The translations under genes and the position numbers were made by a program. The notes beneath the pieces were generated by a model, which was given only the letters and a program-made list of their open reading frames with translations, was not told where the DNA came from and searched no databases. From contig NJBF01000089.1 in NCBI GenBank assembly GCA_003144275.1, positions 1 to 6,797 on the forward strand: a stretch of 6,797 bases of DNA, given 5' to 3'. The stretch is from Candidatus Heimdallarchaeota archaeon B3_Heim. GTDB lineage: Archaea > Asgardarchaeota > Heimdallarchaeia > Hodarchaeales > Hodarchaeaceae. Below are positions 1 to 6,797 of the stretch, one piece after another; the first letter of the stretch is position 1; each line of letters begins with the position of its first letter.

Positions 1-3000
1 TTAAAAAAGGAAAACTGGGTCCAAGTAGCTGGTCATTATAACATACCTGTAACTGTCGCTTTAACAAAACTTCAGATACGCAATTTAATAGTAGATCATT
101 GCCTTGAAAATGACATAATTGACGAGGCAGCGGAAAATCCTAGTGTCGAGGTTATGCGATTGAAACTACAGTTTCAAGCAAATGAGAGGGATGAACGTAG
201 GCTAGCTCGAGAGGCTGAAATAGCACGAGCGCAAAGAGAGCATGATGCTGAAACGCAACGTGCACAGGAGGCGCAAAAAGCACGAGATGCTGAGGCGGAG
301 GCTGAAGCGCGACGTGCACAGAATGCAAAAGCCATGAGTGATGCGGAAGCGCAAAGAGAGCATGACGCTGAAGAGCAACGCGCACGGAATGCGAGAGAAG
401 CGCGAGATGCTGAAAAAGACGCTGAAGCGGAGGTTGAAGCACGACGAGCACAGGAAGCGAGAGAAGCGCGAGATGCTCAAAAAGCTTTGCAAGACGCGAA
501 ATTGGCTAGTGAAAGACAAGCTCGCGAGTTAGAAATACAAGCGGCACGCGAAAAAGCAGCCAGTGATAAAGAGGCGCGCGAATTTGAGTTTAGGGCGGCA
601 CAAGAAACAGCGGCCTTAGAAGCGCAAGAAAAAGCCAAAGCACGTGCTGCAGAATTAGTGCATGAAGAAAGAATGGCAAGTATGGGTAGGTCCCCTCCTC
701 CAGATAGAACTAATATATTTGACCCTGCTAGAAATATCAGATTAGTCCCCCCCTTTCAAGAGAAAGAGGTAGATAAATACTTTGCTCATTTTGAGAAAGT
801 AGCAGACAGTTTGAAATGGCCTAAAGACAGTTGGGTATTATTATTACAAAGTGTCCTGACAGGAAAAGCCCAAGAAATTTATGGAGCTTTATCAGTTGAA
901 CACAGTTCTGATTATAATTATGTGAAAGAAGCAATTCTCAAAGCTTATGAATTGGTCCCCGAGGCTTATAGGCAAAAATTTAGGAAGTATATCAAGTATG
1001 ATAGCAAAACACATGTTGAATTTGCTAGGGAAAAAGAGAACTTGTTTAATAGATGGTGTCATTCTAAGGAAGTTGGTCAGGATTTTGACAAGTTAAAACA
1101 AATGATTTTACTTGAGGAATTTAAAGAAAAGGTTCAGGCCGATGTTAGATCACACTTAGATGAACAGAAAGTAGAGGAGTTAGAAAAAGCAGCAGTAATG
1201 GCTGACGATTACTCCCTCACACACAAAATAAGTAGCAAGTCTAATAACCCCCAACAAAGAAGACCTTATAATCCAGGTAGATGGAATACAGGTAACAGAA
1301 ACAATTTACCCAAAAACTCTAATCAGAGAGACCGACAAGAACAAGGTAAGTCAACTGAAAGTGTTGGGTTAGTTAACAAGGTAGAGGCTGCAAAGCCAAT
1401 TAGTTGTGGACATTGTGGAAAACCTGGCCATATAATTTCGAATTGTTGGAGATTGGTAGGTAAAAAGTCTTGTGAACATTGTGGTAAAAATAATCACAAA
1501 AGTGAGAATTGTTATACTTTAAAGAATAACCCAGAAACGACAGTCCGTCCGACTGGATTAACTAGCTTGAGAGGTAAAACAGGAAAGGGTTTACTGTCAA
1601 AGTCTGTCCCCGATGCTGGTAGCATCATTGATAAAAGTAGTCCCGTTGTAGAACCTGATTACATGGAGAAATACAAACCCTTCATATCCGAAGGAGTAGT
1701 GTCATTAGTAGGAGATGAGAATAGCTCACAAACTATTAAAATCCTAAGGGATACTGGAGCAACTCAGTCACTAATGTTAGAAGGTATTTTACCCCTTACA
1801 GAAACAAGTTTCACCGGTGCAAAAGTACTTATTTCTGGGGTTGAGATGGGCATATTAGAAGTTCCCCTCCATGAAGTAAATATTAAGTCCAATTTAGTAA
1901 ATGGCAACATAGTTGTAGGGATGAGACCCTCATTACCTGTAGAAGGTATATCATTAGTACTCGGAAACGACTTAGCAGGTGAGAAAGTCATGGTTGATCC
2001 CCGAGTAATAGAAAAACCCAGAAACGATGAGAAAACTGAGAAATTATCAGAAAAGTTCCCAGGTATATTTCCTGCCTCTGTAGTAACGCGTGCTATGAAG
2101 GTGAAGGAGAGTGCAAATGAGGAACAGTATAAAGAGATAATTGATCTCTCAGGTACGTTTCTAGGTGATAAATCAGGAATAGTGGAAGAAAATAAAAAGG
2201 AGAAAAAGACATCTGTCTTATTACCGGACAAACCTAGGGATAACAAAGAGACCCCTCCACAGCAACAGGTAAATAAAGAAACTTCAGTAATTTCTAGACA
2301 GAAATTAATTGAAGAACAAGGTAAGGATAAAAAGTTACTTGATTTGTTTAAAATAGCCTTAACTCCAGAAGAAGCCGAAAAGGTGAGTGTTGGTTATTTG
2401 GTCAAGGATAACATTTTGATGAGAAAATGGTCGCCTACAGAATGTGACAGTGAGGAGAAGGTGAAGACAGTGTATCAAATTGTAATTCCTGCCATAAACA
2501 GGCAAGAGGTTTTAGGATTGGCACACGAGATGCCAATGTCTGGTCATTTGGGAATACGTAAAACCCATGATAGAATATTGCAACATTTCTATTGGCCTGG
2601 GTTGAAAAGTGATGTAACTAAGTGGTGTAGGGAGTGTCACATTTGCCAAATAGGTGGCAAACCAAATCAGAATATTCCACAGGCACCTTTACAGCCCATA
2701 CCAGCTTTTGACGAACCATTTTCCCATATTATAATTGATTGTGTAGGGCCACTGCCTAAAACAAAGTCACAACATGAGTATTTGTTGACTATAATGTGTA
2801 GTTCGACCCGATTTCCAGAAGCTATTCCCCTTAGAAATATCAAAACAAATACAATACTTAAAGCCTTGATAATATTTTTCACATCTTTTGGCTTGCCCAA
2901 GTCAGTGCAGTCAGACCAAGGAACAAACTTTATGGCCCATACATTCCAACAGGTAATGAATCAGTTAGATATTAAACAGTACAAGTCCAGTGCATATCAT

Positions 3001-5157
3001 CCAGAGAGTCAAGGAGCTCTGGAAAGATTCCATCAGACATTGAAAACAATGCTCAAAATGTATTGCACTGAGAATAGTAAAGATTGGGATGAAGGGGTGC
3101 ATTTGTTGTTATTTGCAGTTCGTGAAAGTGTTCAGGAATCACTAGGATTTAGCCCTTTCGAACTGGTGTTTGGCCACACTGTACGTGGACCTTTGTTATT
3201 GTTGAGAGAAAAGTGGCTTGATGAAGATACTGAAAAAATTAGTATCCTGAAGTATGTAGCTACCTTTAAGGATAGGTTGTTTAGAGCAGGAGAAATGGCT
3301 AAAAAGAATCTTCAGGAATCACAAGCCAAAATGAAATTGTGGTATGACAAACATGCAAGATCAAGAGTATTTGAACCTGGAGATAAAGTGTTAGTTTTGT
3401 TTCCTATAGTAGGTAACCCGTTGCAGGCTAGTTATTCTGGTCCTTATGAAATAGTTAGAAAGATCAGTGAAACTAATTACTTGGTCAAAACTCCTGATCG
3501 TCGTAAGGAAACACAACTATGTCATATTAATATGTTAAAAACATATTACCAGAAACAAGAACCAGACCTTAGTACAAAGAGAGTTGGAGAGACCAGTGCT
3601 TTGGTAAGTTTGGTTGAAGGTTCTAACGCGGTGCGTGAACCACTGGTAGATGAAACAGTTGTCCCCCCTACAAAGGTAGAGGATGTAGAAAATGAGGTAA
3701 ATTTAGGAAATGACAAACAGCCAATTAAGCTAAAAAACTCTCAGATCTTAAATGCTCTAGATAGTAAATTGTCACATTTACCCATACACAAGAGAGAGGA
3801 ATTAGCTAACATGATTAGGCAGTTTAGAGGCATATTTCCAGATGTCCCAAATAAGACTCATATAATAGAGCATGATGTGAATGTAGGAGAGGCCTCCCCC
3901 ATAAAGCAACATCCTTATAGGGTTAGTCCTCTGAAAAAAGAGTTACTTGACAAAGAGGTTCAGTACATGTTAGAAAATGACATTATAGAGGAAAGTCAAA
4001 GTAACTGGAGTTCACCATGCATCTTAGTACCGAAACATGATGGCGGGTATAGATTTTGTACAGACTTCCGAAAAGTCAACGATAAAACAAAATCAGACTC
4101 ATTTCCGATTCCGAGAATCGCAGATTGTATAGACCGTATCGGAACTGCAACATATGTCAGTACATTTGATATGTTGAAAGGTTACTGGCAGGTACCTTTA
4201 ACCGAGCGGGCAAGAGAAATCTCTGCATTCGTAACACCGAGCGGCTTATATCAGTATAAAGTCACCCCTTTTGGGATGAAAAACGCTCCGGCTACATTCC
4301 AAAGAATGGTTAACAACTTAATCCGAGATATTGACGGGTGCGAGGGATATATAGATGATGTAGTCATCTATAGCGAGAATTGGTCAGATCACGTAAGTCG
4401 GATAAAACGATTCTTTGAAAAGATGTTAGATGCAAATCTAACCATTAATCTTTCGAAAAGCGAGTTCGGAAAAGCGACCGTGAAATACCTAGGACATGTT
4501 GTGGGTCAAGGTCAAGTAAAACCCATCGATGCTAAAATCCAAGCAATAGCAAATTTTCCTGTCCCTACCTCAAGAAAAGAACTAGCTAGATTCTTAGGTA
4601 TGGCAGGATATTACCGGAATTTCTGTTTAAACTTTTCGGATATTGCATCTCAATTGACAAATTTATTGAGCAGAAAAGTTAAGTTTATCTGGACTGACAA
4701 ATGTCAATTGGCATTTGACAAAGTAAAATTGTTACTTCAGAAATACCCTGTTTTAAGAAGTCCAGACTACGGGAAACCTTTCAAGCTCATAATAGACAGT
4801 AGTGATGTAGGAACAGGTTCTGTAGTTGTACAGGAAGACTCAGAAGGATTAGATCACCCTGTTGGCTATTTCTCTAAAAAGTTCTTAAAACACCAAAAGA
4901 ATTATTCTGTCGTTGAGAAAGAAACTTTAGGTTTAGTTTTAGCTATTGAGCATTTCGATGTATATCTTGGTTCAACACCATTTACTATCAAGGTGTATAC
5001 TGATCATAATCCTCTGACATTCCTGAAAACTATGAAGAATAAAAATCAAAGATTAGTCAGGTGGAGCTTAGCTTTACAAGAATATGATCTTGAAATTCAG
5101 CACATAGCTGGAATAGATAACGTAGTGGCGGATGCGCTCTCGCGATGTATAGGTTGA
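1..5157 (+). CDS. gag-pol: Gag-Pol polyprotein (Gag-PR-IN-RT-RNase H), 5'-partial; frame is open from base 1, upstream of the ORF-track Met at 154
   Basis: Bases 1-153 translate without stops in the same frame (LKKENWVQVAGHYNIPVTVALTKLQIRNLIVDHCLENDIIDEAAENPSVEV-M). The frame then runs 1667 aa to TGA at 5155-5157 with no frameshift or internal stop, and all expected catalytic motifs are present. Confidence 0.96.
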   Translation, partial: LKKENWVQVAGHYNIPVTVALTKLQIRNLIVDHCLENDIIDEAAENPSVEVMRLKLQFQANERDERRLAREAEIARAQREHDAETQRAQEAQKARDAEAEAEARRAQNAKAMSDAEAQREHDAEEQRARNAREARDAEKDAEAEVEARRAQEAREARDAQKALQDAKLASERQARELEIQAAREKAASDKEAREFEFRAAQETAALEAQEKAKARAAELVHEERMASMGRSPPPDRTNIFDPARNIRLVPPFQEKEVDKYFAHFEKVADSLKWPKDSWVLLLQSVLTGKAQEIYGALSVEHSSDYNYVKEAILKAYELVPEAYRQKFRKYIKYDSKTHVEFAREKENLFNRWCHSKEVGQDFDKLKQMILLEEFKEKVQADVRSHLDEQKVEELEKAAVMADDYSLTHKISSKSNNPQQRRPYNPGRWNTGNRNNLPKNSNQRDRQEQGKSTESVGLVNKVEAAKPISCGHCGKPGHIISNCWRLVGKKSCEHCGKNNHKSENCYTLKNNPETTVRPTGLTSLRGKTGKGLLSKSVPDAGSIIDKSSPVVEPDYMEKYKPFISEGVVSLVGDENSSQTIKILRDTGATQSLMLEGILPLTETSFTGAKVLISGVEMGILEVPLHEVNIKSNLVNGNIVVGMRPSLPVEGISLVLGNDLAGEKVMVDPRVIEKPRNDEKTEKLSEKFPGIFPASVVTRAMKVKESANEEQYKEIIDLSGTFLGDKSGIVEENKKEKKTSVLLPDKPRDNKETPPQQQVNKETSVISRQKLIEEQGKDKKLLDLFKIALTPEEAEKVSVGYLVKDNILMRKWSPTECDSEEKVKTVYQIVIPAINRQEVLGLAHEMPMSGHLGIRKTHDRILQHFYWPGLKSDVTKWCRECHICQIGGKPNQNIPQAPLQPIPAFDEPFSHIIIDCVGPLPKTKSQHEYLLTIMCSSTRFPEAIPLRNIKTNTILKALIIFFTSFGLPKSVQSDQGTNFMAHTFQQVMNQLDIKQYKSSAYHPESQGALERFHQTLKTMLKMYCTENSKDWDEGVHLLLFAVRESVQESLGFSPFELVFGHTVRGPLLLLREKWLDEDTEKISILKYVATFKDRLFRAGEMAKKNLQESQAKMKLWYDKHARSRVFEPGDKVLVLFPIVGNPLQASYSGPYEIVRKISETNYLVKTPDRRKETQLCHINMLKTYYQKQEPDLSTKRVGETSALVSLVEGSNAVREPLVDETVVPPTKVEDVENEVNLGNDKQPIKLKNSQILNALDSKLSHLPIHKREELANMIRQFRGIFPDVPNKTHIIEHDVNVGEASPIKQHPYRVSPLKKELLDKEVQYMLENDIIEESQSNWSSPCILVPKHDGGYRFCTDFRKVNDKTKSDSFPIPRIADCIDRIGTATYVSTFDMLKGYWQVPLTERAREISAFVTPSGLYQYKVTPFGMKNAPATFQRMVNNLIRDIDGCEGYIDDVVIYSENWSDHVSRIKRFFEKMLDANLTINLSKSEFGKATVKYLGHVVGQGQVKPIDAKIQAIANFPVPTSRKELARFLGMAGYYRNFCLNFSDIASQLTNLLSRKVKFIWTDKCQLAFDKVKLLLQKYPVLRSPDYGKPFKLIIDSSDVGTGSVVVQEDSEGLDHPVGYFSKKFLKHQKNYSVVEKETLGLVLAIEHFDVYLGSTPFTIKVYTDHNPLTFLKTMKNKNQRLVRWSLALQEYDLEIQHIAGIDNVVADALSRCIG
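229..480 (+). repeat. In-frame tandem duplication in Gag (about 40-aa unit x2) encoding an Ala/Glu/Arg-rich predicted coiled coil
   Basis: Unit 1 is 229-348 and unit 2 is 349-480; both start gcgcaaagagagcatga (AQREHDAE). Unit 2 has an extra 12 nt (415-426, KDAE). A sub-repeat of the type RAQEAREARDAE occurs 4 times. Confidence 0.88.
718..1212 (+). other. Gag capsid region including a SCAN-like domain (about 958-1212)
   Basis: VPPFQEKEVDKYFAHFEKVA...W..LLQSVLTGKAQEIY...VKEAILKAYELVPEAYRQKFR...LFNRW...LKQMILLEEF...AAVMADDY. This pattern is typical of Gmr1-like Gag, from which the vertebrate SCAN domain is known to derive. Recognised by eye. Confidence 0.8.
1405..1512 (+). other. Two CCHC zinc knuckles (nucleocapsid)
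   Basis: CGHCGKPGHIISNC (1405-1446) and CEHCGKNNHKSENC (1471-1512), both exact CX2CX4HX4C. Confidence 0.95.
1729..1990 (+). other. Retropepsin-type aspartic protease domain (boundaries approximate)
   Basis: IKILRDTGATQSL with catalytic DTG at 1750-1758; C-terminal LVLGNDL motif. Confidence 0.9.
2500..3550 (+). other. Integrase (HHCC zinc domain, DD35E core, GPY/F C-terminal region); boundaries approximate
   Basis: H(2524)EMPMSGH...CRECHIC; D at 2737 (IIDCVGP); D at 2914 (SDQGTNF); E at 3022 (GALERFHQTLK), giving D-35-E spacing; YSGPY with GPY at 3439-3447. Confidence 0.95.
3900..4530 (+). other. Reverse transcriptase core (boundaries approximate)
   Basis: IKQHPYR, SNWSSPCILVPK, YRFCTDFRKVN, FDMLKGYWQV, PFGMKNAPATFQR, YIDD at 4348-4359, KYLGHVV. 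Confidence 0.97.
4774..5154 (+). other. RNase H domain (Ty3/Gypsy type)
   Basis: KPFKLIIDSSDVG (D 4795), YSVVEKETL, YTDHNPL (D 5002), NVVADALSR (D 5131). Confidence 0.95.
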
Positions 5158-5456
5158 TCTTAATACTGGTTGGAATATTCAGGAAACCTCCCCAGAATGA
5201 ATGTTAACCAGTCTTTATATAACATTGTATAATATGATTAATGCATGCTTAATAGTTTTTTCTGAAAAAGTTCTAACTTGTACATCGTGATGCATCTTAG
5301 AGAGACATAACATATTTCTTGCTACAATATTTATACATTATAATGATGTGAATTTTATTACATGGATAATATTGTTATTTAAGAAAAATGTGTTACATGT
5401 ATAATTTTTGAAATAAGAGGATGATTCGTTTGCATTGTATGCAAACTCTTTTAACT

Positions 5457-5463
5457 GAGGGGG
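5457..5463 (+). other. Polypurine tract (plus-strand primer)
   Basis: GAGGGGG directly abutting TGTTA, about 300 bp downstream of the pol stop. The position is as expected, though the tract is short. Confidence 0.7.
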
Positions 5464-5809
5464 TGTTATGGTGTTGTGAATATATTTAAGAATTAAATGT
5501 AACTTTTTAATAAATATTAGTTTATGATATATACAGTATAGTATATTTATTAGAATCATTATATCTGAGTTGGTATTGTTATAGCAGTGACAACTAATAT
5601 ATTTCATTGTTTATTTAAGAACTTATAGAGACAAAGGTATTAATTAACGATGTCATTCTTATGTATACACTATTGTATGATAATGAGGAGTGGCTTCATG
5701 CTGTGATAGCATCACTGTGTTAATGATGTAAATTGGGCCTAGCTTAATTGAGGTAATTAGTACTTGAGCTCATTTGTGTGAGGATTAAAATAATCAGTCT
5801 TGCAGAGTT

Positions 5810-5844
5810 TATATAAATGGACCCATTTAAGAATTTAATTAGTT
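5810..5844 (+). promoter_or_regulatory. Putative LTR Pol II core promoter: TATA box plus initiator
   Basis: TATATAAA at 5810-5817 and Inr-like TTAGTT at 5839-5844, with the A at 5841 31 nt after the TATA start. The AT-rich context lowers specificity. Confidence 0.5.
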
Positions 5845-6222
5845 CTTTCCAGTTGTTACTCAAGGAGAGTAGAGCTAAAATCTGCCTCCCAACAAAAAAT
5901 AGCTTATTATCAGTTAAAGTTTGATTTCTGATATGTTAAGAAGAAGCAGTCAAAGTTATGATTACTGAGATCTAAGAAGCTGAGACGTTGGCAAAGAAGA
6001 TCTATTGAAGAATTATGAACATTGATATTGTTTCAGTTATATTATAGAAGATAGACTAATTTTAGTCTAGGAAACAATAACAGGGTAAAGAGCAGAAGAA
6101 CTCATTTCAACACTACAAAAAGAAGTAGATGAGGAGAACACAAACTCGAACCCATGTTTCCAGATAGAGTTAATTAAAACTCAAAAGAATGGTGAAGTAC
6201 TGCAAAAATAGCAGTTAAAGAG

Positions 6223-6255
6223 AAGACCAACAAAAGACCAACAGAAAGACCAACA
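6223..6255 (+). repeat. Short tandem repeat AAGACCAACA x3 inside the LTR
   Basis: Exact 10-mers at 6223-6232, 6234-6243 and 6246-6255 (period 11-12 nt). Confidence 0.85.
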
Positions 6256-6408
6256 AAAGAGATGGATCCCATCAGGAGACTAGCTAGCAACAAACTTTAA
6301 GTATTTATTACTTACTACTTATATTTTTTATTTGTTCTTTTAATTTATGTAAAATGAACATCTTTAGTAGTTAAGTTTTTTAATAGATAAGATTAAAAAG
6401 TTTTGTTG

Positions 6409-6414
6409 AATAAA
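6409..6414 (+). terminator. Putative polyadenylation signal of the LTR
   Basis: AATAAA (plus ATTAAA at 6392-6397), followed about 20-35 nt later by a GT-rich tract (ttgttgtgtttgctt), about 90 nt before the LTR end. Confidence 0.55.
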
Positions 6415-6575
6415 TTTTGTATTGCATAAAAGCCTTGTTGTGTTTGCTTATTGGAAGGTCTGTTTGGTTCTGTCTATTCTGTTACATTTAACGAGCCGTA
6501 ACAGGTGTCACTGCGGTTTTCTTCTGTCCTTTCTTTGCCTTGAGGTGCTGATCTCTAATAGAGGTGCACATTTTC

Positions 6576-6583
6576 TGGCGCTG
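6576..6583 (+). other. Candidate primer-binding site for element B
   Basis: TGGCGCTG begins 5 nt after a CA end at 6570. From memory it matches 8 nt of the 3' end of some tRNA-Ser isoacceptors, but the match does not clearly extend. Not verified. Confidence 0.35.
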
Positions 6584-6631
6584 GCTCGATGTCCAAGCAG
6601 AACTCAGAAAAAGACTTGAAAATAAGCAATC

Positions 6632-6797
6632 ATGGCATTTGTGCTTCGAGAATTTATACCAAAGCTTGAAGGGTCTCATAGTCTGGATCCCGTTGGTAGT
6701 TTAAAAAAGGCTGAATGGGCCCAGGTAGCTGATCATTATGGCATCACTTTTGTTGCCAGTGCGACAAAATCTCAAATATATAAGTTAATAGAAAATT
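6632..6797 (+). CDS. gag: Gag N-terminus of element B, 3'-partial (not in the ORF track)
   Basis: ATG at 6632, open to the window end: MAFVLREFIPKLEGSHSLDPVGSLKKAEWAQVADHYGITFVASATKSQIYKLIEN. Bases 6701-6797 align ungapped to 1-97 at 66/97 nt and 16/32 aa identity. Confidence 0.88.
   Translation, partial: MAFVLREFIPKLEGSHSLDPVGSLKKAEWAQVADHYGITFVASATKSQIYKLIEN

Follow-up and report, generated by a model that had tools for sequence, protein, structure and literature searches.

The 6,797-nt stretch of DNA analysed here (the window) is the entire contig C13 (NJBF01000089.1) of the metagenome-assembled genome (MAG) of Candidatus Heimdallarchaeota archaeon B3_Heim, an archaeal MAG of 3.95 Mb in 103 contigs with 94% completeness and 3.9% contamination. 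On its forward strand the window carries the coding region of a long terminal repeat (LTR) retrotransposon (element A), the 3' untranslated region of this element, a single LTR, a leader and the first codons of a second gag (element B). At the contig level, one LTR lies between two internal regions of the same orientation, and the junctions at its two ends, with a polypurine tract (PPT) on one side and a leader on the other, are canonical.

Element A begins with a gag-protease-integrase-reverse transcriptase-RNase H polyprotein open reading frame (ORF) at 1..5157 on the + strand (1,718 codons; translation P0001), which is open at the 5' end of the contig and lacks about 23 N-terminal residues relative to its relatives. 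Along P0001, Pfam places a SCAN-like capsid domain at residues 320-409, the integrase zinc finger (Integrase_H2C2) at 830-884, the rve integrase core at 905-1001, the integrase C-terminal domain (Integrase_p58_C) at 1147-1180, RVT_1 at 1343-1500 and RNase H at 1564-1695 (RT_RNaseH at 1589-1695). In addition, two CCHC knuckles (nt 1405-1512), a protease DTGA motif (nt 1750-1761) and the YIDD motif (nt 4348-4359) are present. The pol families matched in Pfam are of the gypsy type (RT_RNaseH, RT_RNaseH_2, Integrase_H2C2, Integrase_p58_C/SH3_Tf2-1), and no copia-type family is matched. The Gmr1 clade is described by an integrase (IN) upstream of the reverse transcriptase (RT) in an otherwise gypsy-type pol (PMC8220671, PMC6238403). 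Because IN precedes RT in the gypsy-type pol of element A, the element is assigned, by domain order and Pfam types, to the Gmr1-like elements (Ty3/gypsy, Metaviridae), as the earlier note on this DNA had proposed. It resembles Gmr1 of Atlantic cod and its clade not only in this order but also in the SCAN-type capsid domain of gag and in an LTR of about 1 kb of the TG...CA type that follows a polypurine tract. At a cutoff of E <= 1e-10, element A matches 129,191 representatives, and the stretch from IN to RT is collinear in the best of those that are full-length. Element A is a further intact-looking member of a known clade.

The 3' untranslated region of element A (5158..5463, + strand) ends in the PPT GAGGGGG at 5457-5463, directly before the start of the LTR. 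The LTR itself occupies 5464..6503 (+ strand; 1,040 nt), runs from TGTTATGG to CCGTAACA with a terminal inverted repeat of 7/8, and contains a TATA-like box at 5810 and an AATAAA at 6409, both on the + strand. These bounds, which had been drawn before, hold up in comparison with relatives, since the termini recur in contig C40 of the same MAG and in two public short-read contigs, L020 and L024, and in each of these a G-rich tract likewise stands directly before the LTR start. In C40, whose element is 63% identical to that of C13 in protein and about 70% in DNA, GGGGAGGGTA precedes TGTTAT and the LTR of 1,045 nt ends in GACGTAACA, so that both termini and length agree with those of the window. 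In L020, GGGTGGGGGTC precedes TGTTATG and the LTR of about 1,770 nt ends in GCAACA; in L024, AAGGGGGGAGA precedes TGTGATG and the LTR of about 610 nt ends in TTCGTAACA. The LTRs of C13 and C40 can be aligned at their termini only, and no second copy of 5464-6503 was found in the MAG itself or in 400 genomes of the same phylum. Upstream of the LTR, a motif at about 5179-5209 is common to C13 and C40 (a 31-nt local alignment, a level reached in 10/300 shuffles).

The leader, that is the 5' untranslated region before the second gag, spans 6504..6631 on the + strand and carries GTGCACAT at 6564-6571. No TGG-type primer-binding site abuts the LTR end at 6503; the first TGG lies at 6576, 73 nt past the LTR end. 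C40 shows the same arrangement: after its CGTAACA, GTGCACAT stands at position 60 of the tail (61 in the window), and by count TGG is found at +73 in both. The stretch that follows the LTR is of conserved length, about 72 nt (6504-6576 in the window and 5248-5320 in C40, for which locus L018 covers 1-5472), and it ends in AGAG(G)TGCACAT plus 4-5 nt. As a check on chance, any shared 7-mer at a matching offset appears in 6.4% of shuffles. Because C40, at 63% protein identity, repeats this layout downstream of its own CGTAACA, this stretch is best read as an inherited leader feature of the C13/C40 sub-clade, and for the same reason the 225-nt tail of C40, on which the gag ATG is not reached, looks like leader rather than host flank. 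In L020 and L024, unlike in C13 and C40, a site that starts with TGG follows the LTR end at 2-7 nt: in L020, AA is followed by an 18-nt site starting TGGGGG, and in L024, 7 nt are followed by a site starting TGGCGACC. The distance from LTR end to gag ATG is 128 nt in the window, 123 nt in L020 and about 91 nt in L024. Thus, the single LTR of the window stands in the canonical 3'-LTR position to element A and in the canonical 5'-LTR position to element B.

Several candidate primers for this leader were considered. Self-priming of the Tf1-like kind was rejected, because 114/1,000 shuffles gave a complementarity at least as good as the 9-nt one between 6506-6514 and 5584-5592, and C40 has none. 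No tRNA gene was found in the window, no tRNA-Pro-type primer site with at least 14/18 matches was found in the window or in C40, and to our knowledge no nameable tRNA has a 3' end that matches 6504-6523. A search of 5100-6797 against Rfam returned nothing meaningful. A separate observation concerns L021, another contig of a relative, where positions 1-90 hold three tandem copies of about 30 nt, each consisting of an LTR-end-like AACAA and then a degenerate site that resembles the tRNA-Pro-type primer-binding site of L020.

Element B is represented by the first 55 codons of its gag (P0122; 6632..6797, + strand), which begin with the ATG at 6632 and stay open to the contig end with no stop. Its translation starts with MAFVL, the same five residues that begin the full-length relatives P0002, P0003, P0005 and P0013; because this start is common to them, the ATG at 6632 is taken as the genuine gag start. 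This bears out the earlier statement that a new gag on the same strand begins 128 bp past the LTR of element A, with no unrelated flank in between. The gapless alignment of 6701-6797 with 1-97 was likewise recovered at the identities given before (about 68% in nucleotides and 50% in amino acids): 66/97 nt are identical, and in a scan of the window the best other offset reached 42/97 (mean 26.5, standard deviation 4.5), which gives z = 8.9. Within this alignment, the first 10 nt are identical and the remainder is about 64% identical. The two translations share 16/32 residues, and the nucleotide differences are spread evenly over the codon positions (11/11/9).

To place this divergence, element A can be set against the nearest family (P0002, 77% protein identity), with which it shares 18/32 over the residues compared between A and B and 85-93% in the integrase and RT cores. 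By this measure, B is a lineage different from A and about as distant from it as the 77%-identical family, which is known from ENA. A hypervariable region within one family was considered as the cause of the A-B divergence and rejected, as copies of the ENA family hardly differ in their N-termini. The 55 residues of B found no relative among proteins of 98-2000 residues, and the first 200 residues of A, compared with short proteins, gave a best match of only 59% identity. No exact match of P0001 is on record.

The host of these elements is to be sought outside the archaeon. Among the 103 contigs of the MAG, Gmr1-like genes (gag-PR-IN-RT-RH, with PR the protease and RH the RNase H) are confined to C13 and C40, and both contigs contain the element only, with no archaeal genes. 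Their CpG observed/expected (o/e) ratios, 0.58 for C13 and 0.35 for C40, are the two lowest of the MAG (median 0.76). When C13 was compared by blastn with all MAG contigs, only the coding region of C40 was matched, and 5158-6797 gave only two chance 40-nt matches in the 400 same-phylum genomes. On the other hand, the nearest family exists in very many copies, numbering in the hundreds, and all copies looked up lie in one large ENA assembly (ERZ25072999), on contigs that reach 4 Mb, with long interspersed nuclear element (LINE)-like genes nearby in 2/6 gene maps and a chromodomain-gypsy gene in 1/6. Because of the lowest CpG ratios, the absence from the 400 genomes and the high copy number of relatives in the ENA assembly, C13 and C40 are taken to be misbinned contaminants, the only eukaryote-like contigs of the MAG, and their source to be a eukaryote, probably an animal. 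True residence in the archaeal genome after horizontal transfer from a eukaryote would account for the binning with archaeal contigs and for the G+C of the C13 element (37%), which is similar to theirs; set against contigs devoid of archaeal genes, the CpG depletion, the lack of anything similar in the phylum and relatives that are multi-copy on megabase contigs next to LINE-like and chromodomain-gypsy genes, its probability is close to nil.

The way in which the MAG was assembled bears directly on the A-LTR-B layout. Seven contig pairs, and contig C73 with itself, overlap at their ends by exactly 127 nt, which points to a de Bruijn assembly at k=127, the assembler and its settings being read from these overlaps. 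In a k=127 de Bruijn contig each 128-mer is supported by reads, whereas such support does not extend to continuity across a 1,040-nt repeat. Since every 128-mer comes from reads, the junctions at 5463/5464 and 6503/6504 and the link from leader to gag would be locally real, and the only place where a chimeric join could have been made would be inside the 1,040-nt LTR, through about 127 identical bases. We infer that A, the LTR and B are parts of one DNA molecule, or else that the contig joins the 3' LTR of A to the 5' LTR of B, both of one LTR family. In either case, and even if all three parts are on one molecule, the canonical spacing on both sides suggests that this LTR family is owned by A and by B.

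Contigs of the same kind are known among the relatives. L020 (6,889 nt) has positions 1-144 identical to 6746-6889, which gives a unit of 6,745 nt, and in L024 (5,472 nt) the first and last 30 nt are identical, which leaves a unit of 5,442 nt; in both, the order is pol, PPT, LTR, primer-binding site, leader and gag. Of five relatives' contigs with available DNA, these two close exactly, and the other three (L021-L023) are incomplete units. Contigs one unit long, with a single LTR joined to the internal region, are thus a recurrent product of short-read assembly in the Gmr1-like clade. Other matches of P0001 in metagenome contigs are internal fragments only, L004 (87% in nucleotides), L005 (84% in nucleotides) and L006, together with a distant gypsy element, L007; no relative was found in the genome and viral contig collections. 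Related fragments at 84-93% include OFRW01003902 and OOGS01000430. In the gene maps of the nearest family, 6/6 copies have no same-strand SCAN, IN or RT gene within at least 5 kb downstream.

Based on the results presented above, the reading that we favour, at a probability of roughly 55%, is that the A-LTR-B layout arose when the assembler walked through an LTR that was collapsed or shared. Both LTR copies of a repeated element would merge into one node of the de Bruijn graph, and host flanks of low coverage would be pruned from it. A walk from the 3' end of the internal region through the LTR and into the 5' leader would then yield a contig about one unit long and with no host flank. In the case of C13, the walk would have passed from the LTR into the leader and gag of a different lineage with the same LTR family, the LTRs of the two lineages having a run of at least about 127 bases in common. 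The assembler, and not a single DNA molecule, would thus have linked A to B, at a point within the 1,040-nt LTR. The length of the contig agrees with this: at a period of 6,700 nt, 6,797 nt correspond to 1.014 units (6,700 + 97 nt), a length to be expected where the contig ends are determined by the repeat structure, and improbable if the ends fall at random. No clear host flank is seen in C13 or C40. That the bin holds only repeats of a eukaryote, with no clear host flank, fits a host of low coverage with a high-copy element, and if only the high-copy element assembles from such a host, each junction on the contig would itself be multi-copy. The canonical placement of the LTR on both sides is what would be expected if both internal types own it. 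According to Novak et al. 2010 (PMC2912890), a circular read graph points either to a tandem arrangement or to terminal repeats like those of LTR retrotransposons. C13 resembles such circular graphs, and the contigs L020 and L024, in being about one unit long, in running from internal region through LTR and leader to gag, and in having no host flank. It differs from L020 and L024 in that these close exactly, with identical ends of 144 nt and 30 nt, whereas the ends of C13 are 68% identical.

This difference is a difficulty for an assembly walk, and other points weigh with it. The ends of C13 share no exact 127-mer, whereas C73, L020 and L024 have exact terminal overlaps. A simple collapsed cycle of one family would close exactly, so that a second lineage is needed, one that has the same LTR and a gag start diverged by 32%; that the B lineage does carry the LTR of A is an assumption of this explanation. 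Moreover, no further copy of the LTR, of the N-terminus of A or of B was found in the MAG itself, in the 400 same-phylum genomes or in the protein and contig searches. A precedent for the required sharing is provided by yeast Ty1 and Ty2, two internal sequence types that share delta LTRs. They show that two different internal regions can go with one LTR family, as is required both by an assembly walk and by a physical dimer; they belong to another superfamily and another host, however, and for A and B the sharing of the LTR would follow from the layout of C13.

A physical dimer of this kind is the strongest competitor of the assembly walk and a real possibility, although we would put it below even odds. 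It would be a shared-LTR heterodimer in the host genome, made by ectopic or unequal LTR-LTR recombination or by double insertion followed by recombination. Structures of the form LTR-internal-LTR-internal-LTR are described by Ke and Voytas 1997, as cited in McGurk and Barbash 2018 (PMC5932611), and from the latter and Morales-Diaz et al. 2025 (PMC11899658) they are known in Drosophila, in plants and in kangaroo centromeres; in Drosophila and plants they are reported to be frequent and are attributed to ectopic LTR recombination. C13 is like them in having one LTR between two internal regions of the same orientation, with both junctions canonical (PPT before the LTR, and ATG at 128 nt after it, compared with 123 and about 91), as an LTR-LTR exchange would give. 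Every 128-mer should be read-supported, and the failure of the ends to close exactly means that the contig is no trivial cycle. On the other hand, the described tandems consist of near-identical units bounded by outer LTRs and target-site duplications; the units of C13 are 32% diverged over the 97 nt that can be compared, and the contig ends inside both internal regions, so that its outer ends lie off the contig. A junction at a single locus would need single-copy coverage of the host equal to that of the MAG, yet the host is represented in the bin by two contigs only, both of them repeats. A contig of one unit plus 97 nt would be a coincidence, and the six copies of the nearest family have no downstream partner. 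The argument of the earlier note, that two distinct families make homologous recombination unlikely, is right in that B is a diverged lineage (16/32 residues) and fails as an argument against recombination, because LTR homology, not gag homology, governs both LTR-LTR recombination and assembly collapse.

It is quite unlikely that the layout goes back to a single event of nested insertion or deletion within repeat-rich DNA, be it that element A inserted into the end of the 5' LTR of B, with 6506-6570 as the last 65 nt of that LTR, or that the flank of A was deleted together with the 5' LTR of B. The segment 6506-6570 does start with TG and end with CA, followed by TTTTC and TGG, and the lack of a TGG-type primer-binding site at 6503 would be explained; but C40 has the same post-LTR layout, with GTGCACAT and TGG at corresponding positions, which marks it as inherited and not as the debris of a unique event, and the LTR end-to-ATG distance agrees with that of relatives. 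Less probable still is the proposal made earlier, that Gmr1-like elements target the 5' end of relatives or are end-joined, or its variant that they retrotranspose as read-through dimers, and so build mixed arrays of one orientation. In both host contigs (C13 and C40), pol and LTR do lead on to leader-like sequence and no clear host flank is seen, the closure in C13 is heterologous, and tandem insertions have been suggested to arise from one-LTR circles and read-through transcripts (PMC11899658). Nevertheless, a collapse of the LTR in the short-read graph is the simpler explanation of the layout, as L020 and L024 illustrate; on the contig there is neither a target-site duplication nor a third unit nor a second junction, and the nearest-family copies are solitary in 6/6 cases. 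A train of elements at an offset of 6700 bp, as it had been described, is thus reduced to a second, diverged gag of the same orientation, which stands, and to a single junction on a contig of 1.014 units. Similarly, there is very little chance that the junction is physical and recurrent, with different Gmr1-like lineages set head to tail around a single LTR by LTR-end-aimed integration or by read-through or one-LTR-circle retrotransposition. The arrangement, which the earlier note knew from no description, is a known kind of structure or an assembly product: shared-LTR tandems are well described (PMC5932611, PMC11899658), and LTR elements give circular read graphs (PMC2912890).

Some further features of element A were recorded. 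Compared with other members of the Gmr1-like clade, its gag differs in a long, repeat-encoded E/R/A/Q-rich N-terminal region. Imperfect direct repeats of 54-66 nt (families D1 and D2) occupy 228..484 on the + strand, upstream of the capsid domain; they encode this segment, are CpG-rich and probably form a coiled-coil in the protein. The length of the segment varies among the relatives P0002-P0013. A SAP-like look of the gag N-terminus received no support from Pfam. The CpG content of C13 is patchy, with o/e of 1.29 at 1-500 and 1.34 at 4001-4500 and of 0.19-0.64 in the remaining 500-nt blocks, and at 4001-4500, in the RT core, there is no jump in identity to L004/L005. The linker between IN and RT, at about 3530-3750, is hypervariable, with 51-56% identity to L004/L005 compared with 79-95% in the flanking segments. 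Apart from this linker, identity profiles to L004/L005 show no abrupt jumps, and as a check for a mosaic they are uninformative. In the gene maps of three copies of the nearest family (P0002, P0004 and P0005), the first called gene lies about 5.9-6.2 kb downstream of gag-pol, and small ORFs are far denser upstream; in these elements the 3' region may be long and free of ORFs, or the LTRs may be very long.

Other contigs of the MAG also deserve mention. Four further contigs of low coding density, as well as contig C2, encode prokaryote-type proteins. C2 (L019; 119-4963 and 5626-6876) carries a 417-residue reverse transcriptase gene directly downstream of a 1,615-residue type ISP restriction-modification gene, and it looks like a prokaryotic reverse transcriptase in a neighbourhood of defence genes, unrelated to the eukaryotic elements. 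Contig C73 (12,945 nt), with its exact 127-nt terminal overlap, is a closed circle in the assembly graph and may be a plasmid, a virus or another circular element, carried either by the archaeon or by a co-binned organism.

The significance of these findings lies mainly in a quality flag for the MAG. Asgard-type MAGs are mined for eukaryote-like genes, and misbinned animal repeats could pass as an archaeal "eukaryotic signature" or as horizontally transferred genes; C13 and C40 should be removed from the archaeal MAG, or flagged as contamination, before any analysis of eukaryote-like genes. In the same way, closed cycles such as L020 and L024 could be mistaken for circular genomes or for tandem arrays. 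A heterologous shared-LTR dimer, if true, would be a small addition to the knowledge of tandem LTR elements, and notable only if recurrent. For the mobile elements themselves, the gain is one more intact-looking Gmr1-like element and a conserved layout of LTR and leader for its sub-clade.

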